DNA of 64,000 nt from a virus: positions 1-64,000 of IMG/VR virus record IMGVR_UViG_3300009181_000044. One strand, written 5' to 3'. Both the position numbers and the translations under genes were made by a program. The notes under the pieces are model-generated. The model worked only from the letters and a program-made list of their open reading frames with translations, did no database searches and was not told the origin of the DNA. Below, piece after piece: positions 482-10,019 of the stretch (position 1 is the stretch's first letter; the number at the start of each line of letters is the position of its first letter).

Positions 482-625
482 TTAAGACTAGACACTTTGA
501 GTGGATTGCCTACAATCACGGAAATCTAGTGTGCTGGGAGGAGCTCGCGACTTACGGGGATCCAGTAACACACTAGAATTTGCGTAGATTTAGGGTCAAT
601 GCACAATCAAAGTAGACTAGTCTAA
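482..625 (+). ncRNA. long imperfect hairpin (5' leader or small RNA)
   Basis: Nested arms: AGACTAG/CTAGTCT, ACTTTGA/TCAAAGT, CTAGTGTG-CTGG/CCAG-CACACTAG. Confidence 0.5.
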
Positions 626-653
626 AGGTTTTGGGAAAACTACGTTTAAAAAA

Positions 654-1430
654 ATGCTACAATTAAGAAAACTAACTATAACTGAATTACCACTTAACTT
701 AATTGCTACAATGACGGAAACTGAATTGGAGGATTGGGCTGTAAAGAACCAACTCAATCGCATGGGATCGTGGCTCTTGCCCCAACTTGTGGCGGCTTTT
801 GGTTCGTGGCGACTCATCCTAGTTGACGGCAAACCAGATGTTAAACTGACCCTAAAGCACAACTGTGAGTCTAGTTTAGAAGCTCAGGCATACTGGCGGC
901 TAAGCCGAATTCCACGCACGTGCCTATTAACCAAGCAGGTAGCAATTCCAGAGTATGCTGTGTTAACTCCACTAATCCTAGCAGGATTTAAGCGTATGCA
1001 GGCAGTTGGCTATGCGTCATGGCAGGGTTTAGAAAATTTAAGCTATGTCATAGAACCCCGTCTCTTGGAGGCAGTTTGTGTTGATGTGCCTGACTTAGGG
1101 TCAGAGCGACTATTGGAGATTAGACAACAGGGGTTAACAACACGCAGTGGCAAAAGTGCAGGTCAACTAAAGTCAGCAGAAACTACTTGGAGCTTGAATG
1201 GAATATCGGACACTGAGTTGGGACATCTACCCAAATTAACACAATCCATATTAGCTCAAATCTGGCTGGCCCATCCGGTTCACAGAAGTGGGCTTATGAT
1301 TTTAGATCCGGGCAACTGGGATCACATGCCAGAACCACTAATTGCACCCACAATATTTAAACAACCCATTAAAGAATCTGAAGTAATAAACGCAAAAGAA
1401 ACAGCAAAAACACTACTACCGTGGATGTAA
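654..1430 (+). CDS. hypothetical phage protein (258 aa)
   Basis: Long ORF downstream of a promoter, abutting the next gene; no motif recognised. Confidence 0.75.
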   Translation: MLQLRKLTITELPLNLIATMTETELEDWAVKNQLNRMGSWLLPQLVAAFGSWRLILVDGKPDVKLTLKHNCESSLEAQAYWRLSRIPRTCLLTKQVAIPEYAVLTPLILAGFKRMQAVGYASWQGLENLSYVIEPRLLEAVCVDVPDLGSERLLEIRQQGLTTRSGKSAGQLKSAETTWSLNGISDTELGHLPKLTQSILAQIWLAHPVHRSGLMILDPGNWDHMPEPLIAPTIFKQPIKESEVINAKETAKTLLPWM

Positions 1431-1431
1431 G

Positions 1432-1749
1432 ATGAAATACAATAAAGAAATCACTGACCGTATTATAGCTGACTACAAGGCTAAGGTGCCAGTTCGAGAT
1501 ATAGCTAATGCAATTGACGTACCAGAACGCTCAATTATAGCAAAATTAAGCTCTTTAGGAGTTTACGAGAAAAAAACGTATGTTAATAAACGAGGTGAGC
1601 TGCCCGTAAAAAAATCCGAGCACATTGAACGCATAGCACAACTGCTTGAGGTCAATTCAGAGACCCTAGAATCGCTGGAAAAGGTAAATAAGGGAGTACT
1701 TAAGTTAATTGAACTTAAATTGACCAAATCTGACCCTAAACCAGAATAA
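1432..1749 (+). CDS. T5 A2-like DNA-binding protein, paralogue 1
   Basis: RSIIAKLSSLGVYEKK...LESLEKVNK aligns with the other three copies and with recalled T5 A2 (SVRSKL..AKAY..; LASLE). Confidence 0.65.
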   Translation: MKYNKEITDRIIADYKAKVPVRDIANAIDVPERSIIAKLSSLGVYEKKTYVNKRGELPVKKSEHIERIAQLLEVNSETLESLEKVNKGVLKLIELKLTKSDPKPE

Positions 1750-1767
1750 TTGCCCATAATTCGACAC

Positions 1768-1802
1768 AAGCCTACTTAATTTCGGTTAAGTAGGCTTTTT
1801 TG
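1768..1802 (+). terminator. intrinsic terminator
   Basis: AAGCCTACTTAA-TTTCGG-TTAAGTAGGCTT followed by a T run. Confidence 0.85.
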
Positions 1803-2009
1803 CGTCTGCTCTAATCAGGTCAAATCAGGCTATTTTGCGGCACCACTGCAATTGTTACGGTTTAGGGTCAGTAGAACTCAAAGGTTACACTTTAGGGTCA
1901 GAACAGGAACCTATGGGTAAAAATCAAGAATTTGCACTTGACAAGTTGAACACACACTGGTAAAATGGCGCAGGCACGTCGAAAATTTGCGATGTGGTTT
2001 ATTTTACGC

Positions 2010-2048
2010 AAAACAAAGCCCCCTCACCGCGACGTGTAGGGGGCTTTG
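2010..2048 (-). terminator. intrinsic terminator closing the RNA cluster
   Basis: Minus strand CAAAGCCCCCT...AGGGGGCTTTG followed by TTTT. Confidence 0.8.
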
Positions 2049-2066
2049 AACTCGCCAGTTTTTTAG

Positions 2067-2426
2067 TGGTTGTCTAAGTGCAGCTGCCAAGCCGCACACT
2101 GGTTTCCTCAGTGGTTCTCTAACAGGACTTCTGGAAGACGGTCTTCACGGCCTGACCCTAAACTGCACACTGCCTCACTGACGTTACTGTGAGCATACCG
2201 GTGGTTAGGGGAGTAATGCGCTACGCTTCCAACGCTTGCGCCCTTTTTAACGACTTAGGGTCGAGCCGGTTATATTGTTGCTCCCGCTCGGACTAAAGCA
2301 GGGACTAGCCTTGTAACGTGGACAATTACGACTGATTAGAGACCGCTGCAGTTTAGGGTCATTAACGCTACTGGGGGTTCCACCCAGATTACCTGACTCA
2401 TAGGTCAAGCTCTTAAGGTCTTAGAT
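2067..2426 (-). ncRNA. large structured RNA of unknown class, ending in CCA
   Basis: No ORF; 15-bp long-range helix 2347-2361/2153-2167; many hairpins with GNRA loops (GGAA, GCAA, GAAA) on the minus strand; 6-bp closing stem TCTAAG/CTTAGA then CAACCA. Confidence 0.6.
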
Positions 2427-2568
2427 GATAGCTGTATTTATAGAGTTCTTTCTCTTCTAGTTTTGTATTCACACTCATAGTGGAGTCGGGAGGAGTATAG
2501 ACTTTGCTCCGAGCCTAGGGTTACGTACTATTTACAAACTACCACAAGGGATTTATGTTTAGGTTCGG

Positions 2569-2666
2569 TTCCTGACCCTAAGCTGCGACTAGCGGTGTTG
2601 TAGTAACACGCACACTAGCTGCGATTGCTTGGGTTTCGCTAGACTTGCACTAGCTCATCAGAGGAA
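2569..2666 (-). ncRNA. hammerhead ribozyme (type I)
   Basis: TTCCT-CTGATGA-GCTAG(TGCAAGT)CTAGC-GAAA-CCCAAGC...GCTTAGGG-TC|AGGAA: full core, stems I-III paired, GUC cleavage triplet. Confidence 0.88.
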
Positions 2667-2668
2667 TA

Positions 2669-2738
2669 TGGTGGGCGGTGTGTAGCTTCTCACACCATCA
2701 AGTTGTTATCAGATTCGTAAATCTGTCGCATAACACCC
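2669..2738 (-). ncRNA. tRNA-sized CCA-ending non-tRNA RNA
   Basis: GGGTG/CGCCC-A-CCA closing stem; internal hairpins CAGATT-TACG-AATCTG and GGTGTG-N8-CACACC; no TTC T-loop. Confidence 0.6.
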
Positions 2739-2743
2739 AAAAC

Positions 2744-2818
2744 TGGTACTCGGCAGGAGAATCGAACTCCTCTTTCCGCCGTGAAAGGGCAGCGTCCTAA
2801 CCGATAGACGAGCCGAGC
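2744..2818 (-). tRNA. tRNA-Glu (TTC)
   Basis: GCTCGGC acceptor stem, anticodon arm CTGCC-CTTTCAC-GGCGG, T-loop GTTCGATTC, encoded CCA. Confidence 0.95.
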
Positions 2819-2918
2819 AGGATACTAAGGGCTGTGGCTCGGGTAATTTATTCCCCACAATTAAGACGCATAACGGATAAATCCCGTTTCCGCTGTCACC
2901 CTGAATTAATATATAATA

Positions 2919-2947
2919 ATTATAACGTAATCAAGCTCGGTAATCAA
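2919..2947 (-). promoter_or_regulatory. sigma70 promoter driving the RNA cluster
   Basis: TTGATT-N17-TATAAT on the minus strand. Confidence 0.75.
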
Positions 2948-3089
2948 GTAAAAATAAACAGTCGTTGTTATCAGAACTAACTTAGGTGAATTTAAAAAAA
3001 TTAATTAGGTTGACTAAGTGTTCATTAACAAACGGGCGGCCGGGTTTTCACGGTCATTCATTAAGCCCTTCCCGACTGTTTATAAATAA

Positions 3090-3118
3090 ATTATACAGCA
3101 AATAGGGTCGTCAATCAA
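3090..3118 (-). promoter_or_regulatory. second sigma70 promoter upstream of the RNA cluster
   Basis: TTGATT-N17-TATAAT on the minus strand. Confidence 0.7.
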
Positions 3119-3144
3119 GTGAAGATTTTCTGACCCTAAATTGC

Positions 3145-3453
3145 TCAAGGCAGGCGAGCTGCCAAGAGTTCGAGTGCTTCGTGGGTTGCCTTTTCCAGGC
3201 TTTCCAGCACTTCTTCACTAGCGCCCACTTTGTAGGCAATCAGGCTTACCAGCTGAGCCTTGGTCACGCGAGTGCCAGTAGCCTTGCTTTTGGCCTTGTA
3301 CACGCCTTCGCGGCTGAGCTTGGCCACGATGCTGCGGGTAGATTTGCCCAGTTGTAGGGCAAGGATTTCTACAGCCAAGCCTTGGCTGTAACCCTGCAAG
3401 AGTTCAGCCGTTTGTTCGGCGGTGTAGTTGGTTTTGGTAGCTTCAGTCATCAT
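3145..3453 (-). CDS. T5 A2-like protein, paralogue 2
   Basis: NYTAEQT...RSIVAKLSREGVY...LESLEKAT; AAAGGA RBS. Confidence 0.7.
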   Translation of the reverse strand: MMTEATKTNYTAEQTAELLQGYSQGLAVEILALQLGKSTRSIVAKLSREGVYKAKSKATGTRVTKAQLVSLIAYKVGASEEVLESLEKATHEALELLAARLP

Positions 3454-3499
3454 ATGTCCTTTTGGTTGGTTTCTGCGCTGTTAAAAGATTATTATACAA

Positions 3500-3634
3500 C
3501 TATTGCGGCACATCGTCAAATTCAAAAAACTTGTCGTGTACGTAGATAGTACCGAGATTTTTGGATAGCTCTGTCTCCACAAATTCTGCAAACCACTGCT
3601 CCTGGTTTAAGCTGAAAAATTCGTTGTCCGACAT
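3500..3634 (-). CDS. small acidic protein (44 aa, not in ORF track)
   Basis: AAGGA RBS; MSDNEFFSLNQEQWFAEFVETELSKNLGTIYVHDKFFEFDDVPQ; upstream TATAAT. Confidence 0.5.
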   Translation of the reverse strand: MSDNEFFSLNQEQWFAEFVETELSKNLGTIYVHDKFFEFDDVPQ

Positions 3635-3947
3635 TTGCCATTCCTTGTTATCATAAAATAAATTATACATAAATCAAAACTTTTTGGCAAATGTAAATTT
3701 TTTCGCTTGATTGCGCACTTGAATCGAAAATACACTTGACAACACTAGGTTTAGCACTGTATAATTTTGGCGCAGGTGACACGGTGATTTTTACACTTGC
3801 TTTCCCACTGGCGCAGCCGGTATACATGCTCGTTTTTACACTTGCTTTTCCACTGGCGCAGGGCATGCATGCCCTGTCGTACTAAAGTACCACAAAATCG
3901 CCGGCAAGTACTGAAAAAGTAGTACATCCGCAAAAATAGCCGCAAAC

Positions 3948-4009
3948 TGGCACAGAATCTGCTAATAGCAAGAATCGTGCCAGCCCCAGCGGCGCAAGAA
4001 GTATGCCAA
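3948..4009. promoter_or_regulatory. three sigma-54 (-24/-12) consensus sites
   Basis: TGGCACAGAATCTGCT (+, 3948), TGGCACGATTCTTGCT (-, 3967-3982), TGGCATACTTCTTGC (-, 3994-4008); all GG-N10-GC. Confidence 0.65.
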
Positions 4010-4265
4010 GTGGTAAGAAAACAACATCAGGGAAAACACCTACAAAATATTTCTTGACACGCGCCCCAAAATTGTGTTATAATTTTGGCGCCAATAACCC
4101 TACTGACTGTAGGGTTATTAAGCTAAAAAATAACCCTGCGCTGGGCAGGGTTACTAAAAATATGCTAGGGGGATTTTCACCCCCATGCCCGAATAAAAAA
4201 TCGGATATTAAAAATTATATGATAGCATATTTTTAAAAAGCCCCTGCTTTTGGCAGGGGCTGTAA

Positions 4266-4592
4266 TCAAATAGGTTTACTATTTGCCAAAGCGTCAAAAA
4301 TCGCTTTCAGTGCCGATTTATTGGCTTTTGTAAGACTTTCGATGTCATTTTCCGGCAAGCGGAGAATCGCACCGATAGCGTCTGCATGAGCGTCTTTTTT
4401 GACTACAGCTTCGCCCGTTTTGGAAACGTAAGTTTTAGCCACATAGACCTTTTCGCGTGACAATTTCGCCACAACGGAACGCACAGTTTTGCCCAAATTT
4501 TGGGCAATGGTTTCCACCGATACCCCTGAGGTATAATCGGCAATCATCGCAGAGGTTTGCTCTGGAGTGTAATTTACAACTTTCGCAGTCAT
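4266..4592 (-). CDS. T5 A2-like protein, paralogue 3
   Basis: KTVRSVVAKLSREKVYVAKTY; very similar to 9308-9631. Confidence 0.75.
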   Translation of the reverse strand: MTAKVVNYTPEQTSAMIADYTSGVSVETIAQNLGKTVRSVVAKLSREKVYVAKTYVSKTGEAVVKKDAHADAIGAILRLPENDIESLTKANKSALKAIFDALANSKPI

Positions 4593-4773
4593 TTTGCTTT
4601 CCTTTCATTTAAAAATAAATTATAACCCATAAACCAGAAAAAATCAAGTGTGTGCAAAAATACAACATAGGGGAAAACACCTATTGACAACCCCCAAAAT
4701 TATATGTTATAATTTTGGCGCAGCAAAGTAGTACTTTGGTTTCCAATTTTACTTGGAAACCAAAGTGTTACAA

Positions 4774-5448
4774 TCAGGCGAATTGTTCTAACAATTGTTC
4801 GCAGTGTAGCTGTACATCCAAAGTATCAACGCAATCTTTAAAATGCAGTAAAAATAACTCGGCATGATCGCCAGTAGTTATATGTGAGTGCCAAACCCCA
4901 GTATTAAAACTAAAGAAGTCACCATCACGAACATTTACAGATTCGGTAACCATTTCCTCACCCGAACCATTATCAAACAGATCAAAAATATGCTCGTCTG
5001 ACAATGCCAAATAGGGATTATTATCTGTATAATATTCAACTCCATGAAAATTCACAACTGCATCATTGTTACCTTTGATAAGCATACAAAGATTCATTGT
5101 GCTAGTGGTGTCATATATGTGACGATGTACACCCCAGTTTGCAACATAGTTTTTGCCTATGTAATAGTGCAAACCCATAGCATCCAACAATTCGATAAGC
5201 TCAGGGAAATTCTTCTCAATTTGAGACCATTCGACCTTTAGGGGTTTACCCTCTAAACCTTGGTCAAGCCTTACAATGGCATTTTCTTCGCCACCTTCGG
5301 CACAAATGCCCCAATAATCACAGTTAATGGCATTTTTATTTTTACCAAAAATATAACCTTCAACCAAGGTTAGCAAGCGTGACAACTCTTTTAAATTGTC
5401 ATCGGTTCTTTTAAATTTGACAAAATTATTGCCTACAGTTTTGATCAT
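4774..5448 (-). CDS. cupin / 2OG-Fe(II) oxygenase-like protein
   Basis: VHRH...NLCM...FNTGVWHS metal-binding jelly-roll pattern. Confidence 0.5.
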   Translation of the reverse strand: MIKTVGNNFVKFKRTDDNLKELSRLLTLVEGYIFGKNKNAINCDYWGICAEGGEENAIVRLDQGLEGKPLKVEWSQIEKNFPELIELLDAMGLHYYIGKNYVANWGVHRHIYDTTSTMNLCMLIKGNNDAVVNFHGVEYYTDNNPYLALSDEHIFDLFDNGSGEEMVTESVNVRDGDFFSFNTGVWHSHITTGDHAELFLLHFKDCVDTLDVQLHCEQLLEQFA

Positions 5449-5627
5449 TTTCGTTTCCTTCGTTTAAAATGAAATTATACCACAAAATCCAAAAAACACA
5501 CAAGTGTGCAAAAATACAACATCAGGGTTTATCCCCATTGACACCGGCTAAAATTATATGTTATAATTTTGGCGCAGCCCTGAAAACAAAAGTATTCAGT
5601 TTATTTCTAAACCGAAACCTTTTGTTT

Positions 5628-5840
5628 TCAGAAAAAGTTAAACAATCCGATTACGTTTGCAACAAAAAATGTACCATTAAGTACACCTAATGCTTTGTCC
5701 TTCTTTTGATAAGCAACCCACAACCAAGCAAGTGAGCCAAAAGTAAACAAAACATATCCAATTTGAAACATTTTGGTTGCAACGGCAAACGAACCAAAAA
5801 TACTAGTCAGAGTGCCGAACCAAGAAACAAAAGTAATCAT
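5628..5840 (-). CDS. small 3-TM membrane protein
   Basis: 70 aa with three hydrophobic segments. Confidence 0.65.
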   Translation of the reverse strand: MITFVSWFGTLTSIFGSFAVATKMFQIGYVLFTFGSLAWLWVAYQKKDKALGVLNGTFFVANVIGLFNFF

Positions 5841-5843
5841 TTA

Positions 5844-6197
5844 TTAAATCTCCATTGAGTGATATGCTTTAGCGGGTAAACCATATTTTACCATGATTTC
5901 AGACCATGTGCGCCCATGCCAGCGATTATTTTTTGGCAAGCCATGAAAAATATAATCAATTTGATGTGCAATTTCGTGTGGTAAAATAACATTAAGCATC
6001 TCAATTGAATGCTTTTGCATAAACTTCATGCCGAAATTAATACAATTGTTTTCAACCTCACAGTTAGCGGCAGTTACTGTAAACCTTTTGTTTGCAATAA
6101 TGACGGGTCGATCAATGCGAATCAATCGGGGATAGATTTCGCAAAATTCAAGCCATACCGAATCAGCTTTTTTGTTGATTGTTTTCATTGTGTCCAT
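5844..6197 (-). CDS. SprT-like zinc metalloprotease
   Basis: HEIAH...HGRTW motif; start uncertain (6197 or 6188). Confidence 0.8.
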   Translation of the reverse strand: MDTMKTINKKADSVWLEFCEIYPRLIRIDRPVIIANKRFTVTAANCEVENNCINFGMKFMQKHSIEMLNVILPHEIAHQIDYIFHGLPKNNRWHGRTWSEIMVKYGLPAKAYHSMEI

Positions 6198-6351
6198 GCC
6201 TGAATTATACATCAAAACCCCGTTGTTTTTTAATCACACACAAAAAATAAGTTATTAAATAATGCTTGACAAGCCCCAATTATATAATATATAATTGGCG
6301 CAGCCAGAAACGAAAGTATTACATTTCGTTTCTTTTTGAAAACCTGAGTTT

Positions 6352-6609
6352 TCAATTTTTCTTGGCTGGGCAAATTTTGTAGTACAAAATAATTGCAATA
6401 AAAATTAAGTTTGCGGCATAATTGAAAACCAAAGGTAACATCATGGTGGGAAAAACGAAAACAAAAGTAAACACCTCGCCAAAGCCCCACATAAGCAAAA
6501 ACCCCCATGTAAGCCCATCAGAGTTCTTATTTTGATAAGATTCGATAGCTTGTGGCAAGCCACAAAATGCCAACAAAATCGAACCAGCCCAACCAAAAAT
6601 TTCTAACAT
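6352..6609 (-). CDS. PQ-loop (SemiSWEET-like) membrane protein
   Basis: GWAGSILLAFCGLPQAIESY...GLTW, 3 TM segments. Confidence 0.8.
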   Translation of the reverse strand: MLEIFGWAGSILLAFCGLPQAIESYQNKNSDGLTWGFLLMWGFGEVFTFVFVFPTMMLPLVFNYAANLIFIAIILYYKICPAKKN

Positions 6610-6789
6610 AATTTCACCTATATAATTTTATCTACAGTCACGCACCGATTATAGGGCATCTCTGAATTGTCGTCAATATCATATCGTTTTTGTGTGTAAA
6701 AAAACAACAATAACAATATAACCCAATAAATGCGATATTTTGAAATAATAATCATTTTATTAATAATCGGGATTTCTCCCGATTATATT

Positions 6790-7488
6790 TTATTTTGCAA
6801 CAAAGTGGTTTTTAACCTGAAAATCTTGCCACGCATAAGGTTTGATATTATCAAGCCAATTGCGTTTTTTGATTATGTGCGAGAGAATGGGCAGTTCAAA
6901 ATCTCGGGCATCTTCTAATGCGGTATGCGGTTCAATAATAATATTATTATTAATAAAGCCACACACAATCTCAGCATTAGTTTTGAATGTCATATTGCCA
7001 TTTTTTGTGGCATTATTAAATTGGTGATTATCAAGCGCAAATTGTTTAAATGCTTTTTTATTGCAGATATTACCAACGCTCGCTTGCCAAAGGCAAAATC
7101 GAGAATTAAACCCTGATAAATCAATGCCAGTATTTGCACATTTTGACAAATCAAAAGCCAGATTATATGCAGTCAATGAGGGATTATATTTGCCAATGGC
7201 TTGATTAATCCATTTATTAATGGCATTAACTGAGGCGGACATTCTCGCCCCTGTTTCTAGCATGGCATTATATCCGGCTTTGCGTTTTTGCAAACCAGCA
7301 TAACCCCAAATATCATTTGCATTTTTATCATGGAATAATTCCATTGTGCTATAATGCCCGATTACCAAAACCGCACATTGATTGTAAATTTTACCATTAC
7401 GATCAACAATCACAATGGCAAAATCTGCCACAGTGTCATTAATGGTTGTCTCAGTGTCGAGAATTGCAAAAAATTGTTTTTTAGCCAT
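6790..7488 (-). CDS. DEDDh 3'-5' exonuclease
   Basis: DTET, AYNLAFD, HTALEDA motifs. Confidence 0.85.
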   Translation of the reverse strand: MAKKQFFAILDTETTINDTVADFAIVIVDRNGKIYNQCAVLVIGHYSTMELFHDKNANDIWGYAGLQKRKAGYNAMLETGARMSASVNAINKWINQAIGKYNPSLTAYNLAFDLSKCANTGIDLSGFNSRFCLWQASVGNICNKKAFKQFALDNHQFNNATKNGNMTFKTNAEIVCGFINNNIIIEPHTALEDARDFELPILSHIIKKRNWLDNIKPYAWQDFQVKNHFVAK

Positions 7489-7686
7489 TGTGTGCCATCG
7501 TGTTGTTGAAGTCCCAATTATACATCAAAAAACCGCCCCACGCACAAAAAATTTAAAAATATTTTTTTGTTGTATTTACGCAAATTAGGGGTTTACCCTA
7601 TTGACACGCGCCCAATTATACTAGTATAATTGGCGCAGCTAGAAACGAAAGTATTACATTTCGTTTCTTTTTGAAAACCTGAGTTT

Positions 7687-7881
7687 TCAAATTATGTGAA
7701 ATTTATCTTTGGGGGTTTCATCCCTTGCAAGTGAACAAATTATCACAGCTTGAAACCATCCGCAAAAATATAAACCAGCAATCCAAAGTAAACCGCCGTC
7801 TTCGTAAGCCCTTAGTCCACACAAAAGGGTTGTAACAGTAGTCAGAATAGTTAAAAAGATTTTGAAAACAGAAGTGTTCAT
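7687..7881 (-). CDS. small 2-TM membrane protein
   Basis: MNTSVFKIF... after AAGGA; two hydrophobic segments. Confidence 0.55.
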   Translation of the reverse strand: MNTSVFKIFLTILTTVTTLLCGLRAYEDGGLLWIAGLYFCGWFQAVIICSLARDETPKDKFHII

Positions 7882-7882
7882 T

Positions 7883-8359
7883 TTAATGTCCTTGTTTGCT
7901 TGGTACATATACGCCACGAATATCAAAACGATCACAAACCGCTTTTAGATAAGTAATATTATCTTCATAAAATGTAAATTCGGCATCTTTGAAATTTAGC
8001 AAATTAAAGAATTTAGCCAAACCTGCAATTTTAAGGGTTGCACCTGATACATTGTCGCCATCTTTGCGAGATATGATATAATCTGGTTCGCCTAGAATCT
8101 CGCTAATAAATTGATTATCAGCATCCCGCAAAACACGGGCAGTAGCAATAATAACAAAACAATTCTCATTTCTGAGGTCTGTTTTGTATTGTTCTGCCAA
8201 TGGTAAAAGTGAATCTTCCAATGCACGATATTCATTTTCACGCCAATAATCAAGGTCGATACGCTCGCCATTGTCGCCAATGATAGTGCGATACCGATGC
8301 AATGAGTCAACAATTGTGCCATCCATGTCATATATTGAAACCTTTGTGATTTTAGCCAT
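7883..8359 (-). CDS. HAD-superfamily phosphatase / nucleotidase
   Basis: DMDGT motif I, ATAR motif II, FYEDN motif IV. Confidence 0.8.
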   Translation of the reverse strand: MAKITKVSIYDMDGTIVDSLHRYRTIIGDNGERIDLDYWRENEYRALEDSLLPLAEQYKTDLRNENCFVIIATARVLRDADNQFISEILGEPDYIISRKDGDNVSGATLKIAGLAKFFNLLNFKDAEFTFYEDNITYLKAVCDRFDIRGVYVPSKQGH

Positions 8360-8784
8360 TTTTGCTTTTCCTTGTTACGATAGAGCAATTATACATCAAA
8401 AATCGCCCATACAACAAAAAATATTGAAAATAGCAAAAATACAACATAGGGGAAAACACCTATTGACAGACCCCAATTATATAACATATAATTGGCGCGC
8501 CCATGTAGTACCTTTGTTTTCAATTTTTCCTGAAAACAAAAGCATTACATTAATCAACCTGTATGTCTACAATTTTTTCTTGTGTGCTATCAGTCACAAT
8601 GTACATTGTGACCACGCCAAGTCCAACCATATACACACAATTTTGAATTGTGTGTATTATAGCATGAGGGTATTTTTTGCCAACATAATCAGCAACAACC
8701 AAGGGGATATTATTCATTTTGATAACCAATACAAAAGCGAAACCTTAACGGCAACAAACACAGAAAACCACAAAAGAAATTCAA

Positions 8785-8988
8785 TCATAACCAACCTTCT
8801 TCAGCTTTTTGATAAGAGTCCATGCTGTCCACAATCTTGTGCAAAGCCTCGAATTGTTCTTGCAGAAATTCTCTAGATTCCCATTCTTGTGGGGTGAAAT
8901 GTCTGGGACGCATACCATGTACATCCTTATAAAAATCCCAAATGGTATCCTGCAATTGTTGCAGGGTTGTGTGTTCGTTAAACATCAA
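8785..8988 (-). CDS. hypothetical phage protein (YKDVHGxRPR motif)
   Basis: Start overlaps the upstream stop; GAGGA RBS. Confidence 0.6.
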   Translation of the reverse strand: MMFNEHTTLQQLQDTIWDFYKDVHGMRPRHFTPQEWESREFLQEQFEALHKIVDSMDSYQKAEEGWL

Positions 8989-9116
8989 AGATCATCCTCA
9001 GAGAAAAATTGTTCAAGTGCCCCATTGTATTCGGAAAGGTTTGCAAACGCAAGACCATTACGATCACAGAATCGGTGAAAGCGGTTTAATTGTGCTTTAG
9101 TGTATTTTGTTTTCAT
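8985..9116 (-). CDS. hypothetical protein (43 aa)
   Basis: ATG 7 nt after TATAAT. Confidence 0.5.
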   Translation of the reverse strand: MKTKYTKAQLNRFHRFCDRNGLAFANLSEYNGALEQFFSEDDL

Positions 9117-9307
9117 GTTGTCTATTATACAAGGTTTTCTAAGATTTGCAAGCGTTTTGCGAAAATACCACATAGGGACAAACCCCTATTGACACACCCC
9201 AATTTTATGTGATAAAATTGGCGCAAACAAAGTAGTACCTTTGTTTGCAAAAGGGCAAGTAGTACCTTTGTTTGCAAAAGGGCAGGGTCAATAACCCTGC
9301 CCTTTGG

Positions 9308-9631
9308 TCAGGCTTTTTCAGCCTTGATAAAATCGGCAATTTTTGCCAATGCAGTTTTGTTAGCCTTAGTCAGCGAATCAGCATCAGCCTCAGAGAGTGC
9401 CAGTGCCTTAGCGATGAAATCAGCGAATTCATCTTTTTTAACAACGGCTTCACCCGTCTTGGTGGTGTATGTCTTGGCAACATAAACCTTCTCGCGAGAG
9501 AGTTTAGCAACAACAGATCGAACAGTTTTGCCAAGGGATTCAGCAATGGATTCGACCGATGTGCCAGCCTGATAGTCAGCGACCATTTTAGCGGTTTGTT
9601 CGGCAGTGTAGTTTACAGTTTTTGCAGTCAT
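9308..9631 (-). CDS. T5 A2-like protein, paralogue 4
   Basis: MTAKTVNYTAEQT...RSVVAKLSREKVY; GGAG RBS. Confidence 0.75.
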   Translation of the reverse strand: MTAKTVNYTAEQTAKMVADYQAGTSVESIAESLGKTVRSVVAKLSREKVYVAKTYTTKTGEAVVKKDEFADFIAKALALSEADADSLTKANKTALAKIADFIKAEKA

Positions 9632-9688
9632 AGAAAAATCTCCATTTAGTTGAGAGGTTGAAAAGAATTTATTATATCACACATTTAG

Positions 9689-9796
9689 TTAATAAAGCCA
9701 TACCCACAAAGGGGCAAAGGCTATTGCCACAAATAGGATAGCTTGCAGAAATTCAATAGCAAGTTGTTTCATGTTGGTCACCTTGTTTGTCATCAT
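9689..9796 (-). CDS. small membrane peptide (not in ORF track)
   Basis: MMTNKVTNMKQLAIEFLQAILFVAIAFAPLWVWLY downstream of a TATAAT promoter. Confidence 0.45.
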   Translation of the reverse strand: MMTNKVTNMKQLAIEFLQAILFVAIAFAPLWVWLY

Positions 9797-10019
9797 GTAT
9801 TTATTATAACATCAAAACAAAAAAAGATCAAGTGTGTGTTTAAATACAACATTAGGGAATGTACCTATTGACAGGGGGGTTAAGAGACATACTGTTACAC
9901 ACACGCTACTGGACCCACCCACACGGCCTATCAGGGGAAATTTTTGGAAACCCATCTGGGTGCGTAAACCACTGCACACAACAAAACACAACCGCAAAAA
10001 CCACCACAAAAAAATCAAC

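Follow-up and report, generated by a model that had tools for sequence, protein, structure and literature searches.

In the genome of this phage, small gene cassettes are separated by conserved intergenic modules, and these modules mark the places at which cassettes are swapped or lost between strains. We tentatively regard them as portable boundary elements of earliest-expressed cassettes resembling the pre-early genes of phage T5, i.e. as recombination modules similar to inverted promoter-early stem-loops (PeSLs). For the promoter within each module, which faces backwards against the genes, we favour a role in insulating cassettes from each other along with production of a short RNA, the main rival being a T5-type nick or DNA-entry signal. 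What is new is the location of cassette borders at the modules, a co-varying dyad and the likeness to the T5 injection stop signal (iss).

Results

Backward promoters of near-consensus quality

The window, i.e. the whole stretch of 64,000 nucleotides analysed here, belongs to a 98.9 kb contig of a lake virus, an uncultured relative of phage T5. It contains nine complete modules and a truncated one, each complete module carrying on the plus strand a TTGACA-17/18-TATAAT promoter followed by GGCGC and hairpins (table 1); the repeat family is confined to 1.9–9.9 kb of the contig. About nine cassette-separating copies, some of them partial, had been claimed in the original prediction. The number holds, with one copy, at 1938, lying outside the region then covered, and some copies are indeed partial: the left-hand motif AAATAC(A/C)ACAT is confined to five of them (4658, 5512, 8437, 9163 and 9842), a small TAGG..CCTA inverted repeat is found in a subset only, and the copy at 9842–9873 breaks off directly after TTGACA, where the terminase genes adjoin. 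This truncated module, which in one variant carries 20 extra nt inserted at 9872, may mark where a terminal repeat, or the physical DNA, ends.

A promoter scan returned seven perfect 12/12 matches to TTGACA-N18-TATAAT, all on the plus strand (3736, 4054, 4684, 5538, 6266, 7601 and 8463), as well as two plus-strand 11/12 matches with TAAAAT (1938 and 9189), and no promoter of 11–12/12 quality on the minus strand; from base composition, we estimate a chance expectation of about 0.01 perfect promoters per 8.4 kb. Between 1900 and 9900, TTGACA occurs 12 times on the plus and never on the minus strand, and TGGCGCAG eight times versus none. All backward promoters oppose minus-strand genes and are convergent with a gene 3′ end each time, the one at 1938 pointing at the end of a minus-strand non-coding RNA/tRNA operon. 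As had been proposed, they have no ORF to drive: an ATG ORF of at least 50 aa begins within 150 nt downstream in just six of 65 units from the window and its relatives. The forward promoters of the genes match the consensus less well in all cases of the same scan; the two kinds of promoter stand back-to-back, each with A/T-rich sequence around −45 to −60.

GGCGC closes every copy, 0–3 nt past the −10 box. In the window and relatives together, the −35 box matches at five or six positions in all 67 units that have a −10 box and GGCGC, the spacer measures 18 nt in 53 of 65 units, and a TGn extended −10 box is present in 45 of 65. Promoter hexamers, spacing and GGCGC are retained across the 65 copies; spacers, dyads and downstream palindromes vary.

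Table 1. Modules, neighbouring signals and cassette genes in the window (nucleotide positions).
Feature	Position	Strand	Basis
Class A backward promoter (no dyad), TTGACA-17-TAAAAT-GGCGCAGG, 1938–1971	unit 1938–2048	+	promoter scan, folding
3′ part of 1938 unit: U-tract hairpin, then GC-rich hairpin	1975–1996; 2014–2048	+	folding
iss-like array: class A promoter (3736–3773), then two promoter-less repeats (3779–3816, 3824–3861)	3736–3875	+	repeat search
Both promoter-less repeats end in GGCGCAG; palindrome CAGGGCATGCATGCCCTG next	within 3736–3875	+	repeat search
Class B backward promoter (dyad across spacer and −10 box), tail GGCGCC	4054–4091	+	promoter scan
Hairpin run closing minus-strand gene array	4093–4262	−	folding, reading of sequence
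Three terminator-like hairpins in this run	4155–4129; 4185–4166; ~4262–4240	−	folding, reading of sequence
Forward gene promoter TTGATT-17-TATAAT, back-to-back with 4684 promoter	4619–4647	−	promoter scan
Further forward gene promoters	3491–3519; 3662–3690; 6204–6233; 9124–9151; 9803–9831	−	promoter scan
Full module: AAAATACAACAT block, small TAGG..CCTA inverted repeat, promoter 4684–4721	4655–4771	+	promoter scan, folding
Hairpin of 4684 module, 19 pairs, abutting stop codon 4774	4728–4771	+	folding
Full module: promoter 5538–5575; hairpin 5580–5631 covering stop codon 5628	5509–5631	+	promoter scan, folding
Module: promoter 6266–6301; hairpins 6306–6333 (then TTTTT), 6336–6355	6266–6355	+	promoter scan, folding
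Module: promoter 7601–7636; hairpins 7641–7668, 7670–7691	7584–7691	+	promoter scan, folding
Full module: promoter 8463–8498, tail GGCGCG; hairpin 8503–8550	8434–8550	+	promoter scan, folding
Full module: promoter 9189–9224 (TAAAAT; compensating left arm ATTTTAT); hairpin 9223–9248	9160–9313	+	promoter scan, folding
Extras of 9189 module: 27-nt tandem duplication; GC-rich two-way terminator	9230–9283; 9277–9305	+	repeat search, folding
Truncated module: left half and TTGACA, then no similarity	9839–9873	+	repeat search
D5-like DNA-binding protein	4266–4592	−	
D5-like paralogues	3145–3453; 9308–9631	−	
D5-like paralogue	1432–1749	+	
224-aa gene, weak cupin match; strain-specific cassette	4774–5448	−	
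Cassette: 70-aa protein and SprT-like protein (families F4 and F2)	5628–6215	−	
Cassette: 85-aa and 232-aa proteins (families F7 and F3)	6352–7488	−	
Cassette: 82-aa protein and 158-aa homologue of T5 pre-early dmp (5′-deoxynucleotidase)	7687–8359	−	

A co-varying dyad and downstream hairpins

The palindrome that had been described as covering the −10 box is real for the seven copies from 4054 to 9189, in which a perfect dyad of 9–13 pairs with a centre of 1–5 nt spans spacer and −10 box, but is absent from the class A units at 1938 and 3736. In the window and relatives, the dyad arms co-vary, matching length changes included: a TTT linker goes with the left arm CCAAAATTATA in 25 of 25 cases, T with CCAATTATA in eight of nine and ATT with CCAATATTATA in three of four, and the −10 variant TAAAAT is paired with ATTTTAT. 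Because the arms co-vary with symmetric length changes, a hairpin or cruciform suits the dyad better than a fixed operator.

The segments behind GGCGC fold much better than shuffled sequences (z −3.4 to −6.5). Their hairpins end at or over stop codons (4774, 5628, 6352, 7687 and 9308, as had been noticed before, and also 8550). By the criteria of the terminator scan, a canonical plus-strand terminator is present in the 1938 unit only, those at 6266 and 7601 consist of a hairpin plus TTTTT, and the remaining module hairpins have no U tract on either strand; with most hairpins lacking U tracts, neither a short RNA nor a transcription stop is assured. Nor is one strand favoured in hairpin stability (mean −25.1 versus −25.8 kcal/mol, p = 0.24; few G–U pairs), which suits a role at the level of DNA no less than one at the level of RNA. 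Rfam covariance models gave no matches at the modules, the sole pass being a tRNA-Glu at 2747–2818.

Cassettes are exchanged at the modules

In keeping with the original prediction, the region is pre-early-like: it encodes a T5 dmp homologue at 7883–8359 and lies between the iss-like array and the terminase genes, a position corresponding to that of the T5 terminal repeat. Another 56 module copies are present in 13 related viral contigs (2–8 per contig), and none in cultured phages. The gene blocks, separated here by slashes, follow the order F1 / F7 F3 F4 F2 / F5 in most relatives, whereas the window has F1 / cupin / F4 F2 / F7 F3 / F5, i.e. F7–F3 and F4–F2 are swapped; in the relatives L053 and L043, block orders are different again. 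A half-module of 69 nt is duplicated on either side of the moved block (6290–6358 and 7625–7693, 97% identical), the downstream half of the 7601 module being a duplicate of that of the 6266 module. Moreover, a 1267-nt metagenome contig (97–98% identical) joins 4683 to 5557 via its own promoter copy; in that lake strain, the cupin cassette (4684–5556) is missing exactly from module to module. The array is cassette-like, as had been suspected, with a gene order that varies among relatives and cassettes that are permuted, gained and lost with borders at the modules. Most other module joints in metagenome contigs have short sides (24–39 nt) and may only be contigs ending in repeats. The 1938 unit with its GC-rich terminator is retained in L021, L052, L053, L075 and L033.

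Discussion

A tentative explanation of the modules as portable boundaries would run as follows. In a module, a near-consensus host σ70 promoter directed against the genes lies inside a hairpin-forming dyad, ends in GGCGC and is followed by one to three perfect hairpins; the next cassette has a weaker promoter of its own, back-to-back with the module. Host RNA polymerase may bind this backward promoter and initiate at or near GGCGC(A), giving only a short non-coding hairpin RNA, and the bound or initiating polymerase together with the hairpins would keep transcripts of the preceding cassette from reading through. Each cassette would then be expressed from its own promoter and could be moved without disturbing its neighbours, while exchange would rely on the homology of the conserved module of about 100 nt, much as it relies on PeSLs in T4-type phages. 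The module may also share descent with the T5 injection-stop region, i.e. its repeat, R^GCGC and palindrome. Contigs from RNA libraries, which carry no strand or end information, include one that spans the 9189 module and another that spans the 4684 module; if these are truly RNA, some read-through does take place. Insulation leaves the invariant GGCGC tail unexplained.

The main rival starts from this tail and takes GGCGC as a T5-type strand-specific DNA signal, either an R^GCGC nick site or a sequence with injection-stop function, which we consider possible but unlikely. If so, virion DNA would be nicked at every module, on the template strand of the cassette genes, and each module would be a small injection-stop copy that pauses DNA entry or cuts transcription of the incoming DNA, cassette by cassette, with the promoter hexamers as an added or targeting layer. 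The agreement of GGCGC with the T5 nick consensus had been missed before, and it gives the earlier idea of a ‘brake during DNA entry’ a version at the level of DNA rather than of polymerase. In T5, the nick consensus is R/GCGCRGG (PMC3517423), the major nicks are annotated at NPu^GCGCN on the minus strand (AY543070), three of the actual sites reading R^GCGCAGGG and one G^GCGCGGGC, and the pauses of ejection in vitro coincide in position with the nicks (review PMC2771126). Since the T5 late genes are on the minus strand beside the right repeat, the window is in reverse-complement orientation relative to the T5 map, and its plus strand therefore corresponds, by synteny, to the nicked strand of T5. 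Site 3855 (repeat, G^GCGCAGGGCA..TGCCCTG) mirrors T5 9748 (repeat, A^GCGCAGGGCAATTGCCCTG), GGATTCGCAC-like words are common to the T5 DRD repeat and the class A spacers, the iss-like region of a cultured Vibrio T5-like phage includes ATTTCGCACT-N6-G^GCGCAG on the same strand, and in L053, AATGCGAAT palindromes of the T5/Vibrio iss type follow four to five of the backward promoters. Full R^GCGCRGG sites, however, are found at 1967, 3769 and 3855, whereas the inter-cassette (class B) tails have only R^GCGC(A/C) without the complete RGG, and the tail reads GGCGCC in 24 of 65 units from window and relatives. The genome has 24 additional plus-strand GGCGC words elsewhere and does not clearly avoid the word, the (C/T)GTAAY box upstream of T5 nick sites is not evident in the window modules, and the cited T5 literature names no enzyme for nick formation. 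Finally, because the nick-type sites of T5 and the Vibrio phage have no promoter, a nick signal does not explain the strict conservation of the −35 and −10 boxes.

The backward promoters could also be genes for regulatory RNAs, either short cis-antisense RNAs of the lambda oop kind that overlap the preceding cassette mRNAs at their 3′ ends and set their stability, or decoy small RNAs for a host factor. A strong promoter with stable hairpins immediately behind it, convergent with a gene 3′ end in every case, would suit such RNAs, as would a core, AAAC(A/C)AAAGTAKT, found lineage-wide in about half of the units and always in plus orientation. Yet this core is a lineage-specific filling, with unrelated palindromes in its place in L053, L113 and L114, and a conserved single-stranded seed is absent; together with near-perfect Watson–Crick hairpins on both strands without bias, canonical terminators missing in most units and the negative Rfam search at the modules, this makes regulatory RNAs quite improbable. 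We find it very doubtful that the promoters serve as polymerase-binding sites as such, be it as an antenna that captures or recycles host RNA polymerase near the weaker gene promoters or as a device that traps, ratchets or brakes while DNA enters. Combining TTGACA, TGn and TATAAT, they are better than plain consensus, and consensus promoters of that kind show tight polymerase binding and poor escape; the back-to-back geometry, the A/T-rich block of both promoters and, by T5 synteny, the orientation of all backward promoters towards the first-entering end would also be in keeping with such a role. Nine to nineteen sites are, however, too few to titrate a cell's polymerase, GGCGC, co-varying dyad and hairpins are all left unexplained, and we know of no precedent for a polymerase antenna or trap. 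That function resides in the palindromes, serving as protein operators or cruciform recombination targets, and the promoter likeness is incidental seems hardly credible: three to four D5-like DNA-binding paralogues encoded in the region, the perfect dyads with their short centres and the SbcCD-like, hairpin-attacking nucleases annotated in T5-type phages would be in keeping with it, but dyad-less class A units still retain TTGACA, spacing, TATAAT and GGCGC, and symmetric changes in arm length speak against an operator of fixed geometry.

Comparison with known systems

In phage lambda, oop is a convergent antisense RNA gene opposite the end of cII; the modules resemble it in having a promoter that lies after a gene, faces its 3′ end and would give a short hairpin-ended RNA, but differ in occurring in at least nine copies per genome, with a common promoter core and unrelated RNA bodies without conserved RNA sequence. 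The leftward minor promoter A0 of T7, near the first-entering end, is likewise host-type, directed towards the entering end and without a gene to drive; unlike the window modules, it is single-copy and has no dyad, GGCGC tail or link to cassettes.

The likeness to the T5 iss is at the level of motifs and position. The 3736–3875 array mirrors the repeat–nick–palindrome order of T5, with GCAC-core direct repeats, the counterpart of the T5 DRD repeats, just 5′ of R^GCGC and a palindrome just 3′ of it (3779–3875, compared with T5 9700–10000 and Vibrio phage X1), and like the T5 injection stop signal/Repeat Region 3, it is separated from the terminase genes by the pre-early genes (AY543070; Davison 2020, bioRxiv 10.1101/866236). 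Of the paired DnaA boxes (TTWTNCACA) that characterize the T5 iss, no paired array and only three loose matches were found in 1–11 kb. T5 and its cultured Vibrio relative also differ in that they have a single such region without a consensus promoter, whereas here −35 and −10 boxes are present in about ten scattered intergenic units.

As portable boundary elements, finally, the modules compare with the PeSLs of the T4-type phages RB49 and phi1 (Arbiol et al. 2010, PMC2839356; Comeau et al. 2014, PMC4122927). In a PeSL, the promoter drives the ORF behind it, with a Shine-Dalgarno site and start codon following on the same strand; in the modules, by contrast, the conserved promoter opposes all genes and has no ORF to drive, while the genes use a promoter of their own that is weaker and less well conserved. 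The modules also differ by their additional hairpins and the GGCGC tail that never varies, and they reside in a phage that is T5-like rather than T4-like. The comparison drawn in the original prediction is nevertheless apt (PMC2839356): a strong σ70-like promoter with −35 and −10 boxes is located inside an intergenic repeat, the elements are closely packed in a plastic region whose genes are small and for the most part unknown, and close relatives gain, lose or replace cassettes between two elements.

Phage and gene region

The source contig of the window is linear, 98.9 kb long and about 93% complete, and belongs to an uncultured virus whose large terminase (TerL) finds its closest match, at about 50% identity, in Vibrio T5-like phages (family Demerecviridae); the DNA runs holding this virus are freshwater and lake metagenomes. 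A head-and-tail gene block of the siphovirus type occupies the plus strand from 10.07 kb onward, and the 2.2–9.9-kb region consists of small genes on the minus strand, including one homologous to dmp, the pre-early 5'-deoxynucleotidase of T5 (table). Homologues of T5 A1 or A2 were not found in the 98.9-kb contig. In cultured T5-like phages, a plus-strand block encoding an A2-like DNA-binding protein, A1 and dmp separates the pre-early genes on the minus strand from the terminase genes (e.g. Vibrio phage X1, 9569–13091); the lake clade has no such block (window 9.9–10.07 kb), and its dmp homologue sits among the minus-strand cassettes instead.

Modules and genes in the window (modules are named by promoter start; class B modules carry a dyad, class A modules do not)
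Feature	Position	Strand	Basis
Class A promoter	1938	+	promoter scan
Class A promoter	3736	+	promoter scan
Class B promoter	4054	+	promoter scan
Class B promoter	4684	+	promoter scan
Class B promoter	5538	+	promoter scan
Class B promoter	6266	+	promoter scan
Class B promoter	7601	+	promoter scan
Class B promoter	8463	+	promoter scan
Class B promoter	9189	+	promoter scan
Cut-off tenth copy	9842-9873		
D5-like DNA-binding protein, three paralogues	2.2-9.9 kb	-	sequence similarity
D5-like DNA-binding protein, fourth paralogue	1432-1749	+	sequence similarity
SprT-like protein; protein with weak cupin match	2.2-9.9 kb	-	
dmp homologue	7883-8359	-	tblastn, E = 2.5e-9

A repeated module with a promoter directed against the genes

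The original prediction described a repeated promoter/palindrome element between these genes, and this is what the promoter scan returned: seven perfect (12/12) TTGACA-N18-TATAAT matches and two 11/12 matches, every one on the plus strand, i.e. backward with respect to the minus-strand genes, where about 0.01 perfect matches would be expected by chance (estimate). Plus-to-minus strand counts in 1900–9900 are 12:0 for TTGACA and 8:0 for TGGCGCAG, and the promoters of the genes themselves are weaker than the backward ones (TTGATT, TTGCAA and TTAAAA on the minus strand). Each complete copy is closed by GGCGC, 0–3 nt past the -10 box. Seven copies carry a dyad of 9–13 pairs over the spacer and -10 box, which is absent from the other two. 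The 70–95 nt 3' of GGCGC fold far better than shuffled sequences (z -3.4 to -6.5), and the hairpins formed there end at, or extend across, the stop codons of the minus-strand genes that precede them, just as had been claimed for the last palindrome. Some copies were rightly called partial: a AAAATACAACAT block with a small TAGG..CCTA inverted repeat occurs in about half of the window copies, and the tenth copy ends directly after TTGACA. The claim that the backward promoters have no ORF to drive also stands, with an ATG ORF of at least 50 aa within 150 nt downstream in just 6 of 65 units from the window and its relatives. A search for hidden plus-strand genes yielded none, the seeming plus-strand families F14–F17 being translated module DNA. 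Outside its array, the module family has no further occurrence in the 98.9 kb.

By the scan criteria, a plus-strand terminator is present only at 1938; at 6266 and 7601 the hairpin is followed by TTTTT, and the remaining hairpins have no U tracts. In two copies, the small TAGG..CCTA hairpin with its AAAATACAACAT block can be read as a weak terminator for the minus strand. Three consecutive terminator-like hairpins on the minus strand (4129–4262) end the gene array of that strand, immediately ahead of the iss-like repeat array (iss, the T5 injection stop signal).

Several copies have peculiarities of their own. At 7601, the AAATACAAC block is inverted (TTGTTGTATTT, 7568–7580). The 9189 promoter is followed by an exact 27-nt tandem duplication (AAGTAGTACCTTTGTTTGCAAAAGGGC, 9230–9283), which is single-copy in a contig of RNA-library run X23. 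GCAAGAATCGTGCCA with a partial inverted partner (TGGCACAGAATCTGC; window 3948–4020) is kept immediately 5' of the first class B promoter in the related contigs L021, L043, L053 and L113, and TGACCCTAA, with five copies per strand in 598–3131, directly adjoins the 1938 class A promoter and lies beside the class A promoter in L021, L052 and L075 as well. The cut-off copy lies about 200 nt ahead of the small terminase gene and has a 20-nt insertion at 9872 in one lake strain; it may mark a terminal-repeat edge or a physical genome end.

Conservation among relatives

Viral contigs were scanned for the pattern and the hits passed through a regular-expression filter, leaving 13 related loci with 1–8 copies each, i.e. 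65 units together with the window. The spacer is 18 nt long in 53 of these, and the -10 box is of the extended TGn type in 45. When units were instead picked with the -10 box and GGCGC as sole criteria, all 67 had a -35 box matching at least five of six TTGACA positions (exact in 59) at a spacing of 17–18. Spacers, sequence left of the -35 box and downstream palindromes vary by lineage: AAAC(A/C)AAAGTAKT is common to about half of the units, those of L053 carry AAATGCGAAT..ATTCGCATTT and TGTTTCACGTGAAACA, and some palindromes in L113 and L114 read ATATAAGC..GCTTATAT. Selection therefore acts on the promoter hexamers, their spacing and GGCGC. On the plus strand outside the array, GGCGC occurs 24 times against about 34 expected (Markov); a genome-wide avoidance of GGCGC is unsupported, and its strand asymmetry tracks the coding strand. 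Among 50,697 phage records, which cover the cultured relatives, neither the modules nor the D5-like and 232-aa proteins had a DNA or protein match, and the equivalent region of T5 and Vibrio phage X1 contains no backward consensus promoter. The module is a real, conserved and undescribed element.

Modules as cassette borders

The ORFs of the window and its relatives were clustered into numbered families (F) and their DNA was compared by blastn. Most relatives (L039, L090, L113, L052, L021) share the order F1 / F7 F3 F4 F2 / F5 (dmp) / ... / F1, followed by the small terminase gene; the window reads F1 / cupin / F4 F2 / F7 F3 / F5, and L053 and L043 have other orders again. Block borders carry modules in every order compared. 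Half of a module (6290–6358) is repeated with 97% identity at 7625–7693, flanking the moved F7-F3 block, a duplication of the kind that a recent module–module exchange should leave. Moreover, in a 1267-nt lake-metagenome contig with 97–98% identity on either side, 4683 is connected to 5557 via the contig's own promoter copy, so that precisely the module-to-module stretch with the cupin cassette is missing. Further joints (6259>5538, 9195>7601, 6259>7613, 8469>9310, 7496>9170) were not counted because their sides of 24–39 nt may belong to contigs ending in a repeat. The cassette array originally proposed is thereby supported; gene order, whose invariance among relatives would have spoken against it, differs between the window and its relatives. 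The role of the module as a cassette border is well supported.

Possible functions of the backward promoter

As to what the promoter contributes to such a border, our preferred but tentative reading is that the module is a boundary element: polymerase would load on the backward promoter and produce a short hairpin RNA, the loaded polymerase together with the hairpins would end transcription arriving from the preceding cassette, and each cassette would thus be a self-contained movable unit, with homology supplied by the module. Contigs from RNA-library runs X23 and X24 extend over the genes and through the modules at 4684 and 9189; these contigs give neither strand nor ends nor proof of RNA. 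What the boundary reading leaves unexplained is the invariant GGCGC.

That GGCGC is a nick or iss-type signal is somewhat doubtful, yet it would account for this sequence, the strand bias and the parallels with T5, whereas the strict promoter hexamers would remain unexplained. In the T5 record AY543070, the major single-chain interruptions are annotated on the minus strand with the consensus NPu^GCGCN; three of the four sites read R^GCGCAGGG and the fourth G^GCGCGGGC, and a consensus of R/GCGCRGG has been reported (PMC3517423). At all four (L127, 9749–9790; L128; L129; L130), a (C/T)GTAAY word starts 34–36 nt 5' of the nick, and Vibrio phage X1 has CGTAAC at -36 of two nick-type sites. This suggests a two-part nick signal, and we found no description of the word at T5 nicks in the literature searched.

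The T5 late genes lie on the minus strand and adjoin the right terminal repeat, so the window corresponds to the reverse complement of the T5 map. By synteny, its 9.9-kb side would be the counterpart of the repeat end that is first to enter the cell, its 3.7-kb side that of iss and its plus strand that of the nicked T5 strand; G^GCGC is on the plus strand at every module. At 3736–3875, a promoter is followed by two promoter-less repeats ending ..CCACTG^GCGCAG and then by GGCATGCATGCCCTG; the T5 counterpart has nine ..GGATTTGCACA repeats, AAA^GCGCAG and then GGCAATTGCCCTG, and the core of the T5 repeat, GGATTCGCAC, is present in class A spacers of relatives. Vibrio phage X1 shows, in the same orientation, repeats, ATTTCGCACT-N6-G^GCGCAG, AATGCGAAT-type palindromes and DnaA boxes, then opposite-strand genes, and in L053 a AATGCGAAT palindrome stands directly 3' of four to five intercassette promoters. 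From this motif-level likeness, the modules can be read as scattered derivatives of an iss-type unit that acquired -35 and -10 boxes.

Within the iss palindromes lie near-perfect Fur-box cores, AATGATAATCATT in Vibrio phage X1 (5590–5700, 5975–6040) and AATGATAATGATT in T5 (9540–9720, minus strand), to which the L053 palindromes AATGCGAAT..ATTCGCATT after backward promoters are related. A Chi-like protection of the entering end, with which the orientation would agree, was also considered and dropped; neither the host nor its Chi is known, and within the left repeat of T5, E. coli Chi stands in the inactive orientation only.

During T5 ejection in vitro, pauses occur at nick-matching positions (reviewed in PMC2771126), which gives the originally proposed brake during DNA entry a DNA-level form. 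At its strongest, this would make every module a working injection-stop/nick unit, with virion DNA nicked at G^GCGC on the early-gene template strand at each border, entry and transcription proceeding stepwise by cassette, and the promoter marking or licensing the sites. We regard this version as rather unlikely.

Quite unlikely, too, is a production of regulatory RNAs from the backward promoters. No Rfam match was found at the modules. Hairpin energies and G-U pairs were compared as pointers to the RNA strand in use and cannot decide, as the downstream hairpins favour neither strand (mean -25.07 versus -25.76 kcal/mol, p = 0.24; G-U pairs 91 versus 119 of about 1500). Capture or trapping of polymerase by these promoters seems very unlikely. 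N4-type hairpin promoters were rejected in view of the clear -35 and -10 boxes; the 2314-aa protein is a tape measure protein rather than a virion polymerase.

The dyad itself seems to be under structural constraint. The left arm changes in step with the linker that separates TATAAT from GG: TATAAT-TTT-GG is paired with CCAAAATTATA in 25 of 25 units, TATAAT-T-GG with CCAATTATA in eight of nine and TATAAT-ATT-GG with CCAATATTATA in three of four, and both TAAAAT-T units have ATTTTAT on the left. Pairing is thus kept through symmetric length changes and double substitutions, which points to a hairpin or cruciform rather than a fixed operator. Since a plus RNA would start past the dyad, such a structure would be possible only in DNA or in RNA from minus-strand read-through. 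That the modules are purely protein-binding or cruciform sites is highly improbable.

Relation to known systems

If the modules are boundary or recombination linkers, modular shuffling of the kind mediated by the promoter-early stem-loops (PeSLs) of the T4-type phages RB49 and phi1 (PMC2839356) is not peculiar to T4-like phages. Large lytic phages would then have a convergent or shared route for trading early accessory genes, and the inverted promoter would insulate cassettes in a new manner. If the link to T5 holds, these phages offer a natural experiment on two open questions, i.e. the purpose of the nicks and what stops first-step transfer: the core (GCAC repeat, R^GCGC, palindrome) would here have been multiplied and tied to polymerase binding sites, and this would guide the choice of T5 iss parts for mutation. 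Should the modules even be working nick/stop units, the unexplained T5 nicks and iss would become a general modular mechanism staging DNA entry. As phages of the lake clade are uncultured, tests are limited to cloned modules or to T5.

Overall, the lake-phage modules share the defining behaviour of the PeSLs of RB49 and phi1, i.e. cassettes change between elements, but differ in that their conserved promoter is antisense to the genes. The module is a PeSL variant with a credible, testable link to the iss/nick problem of T5.
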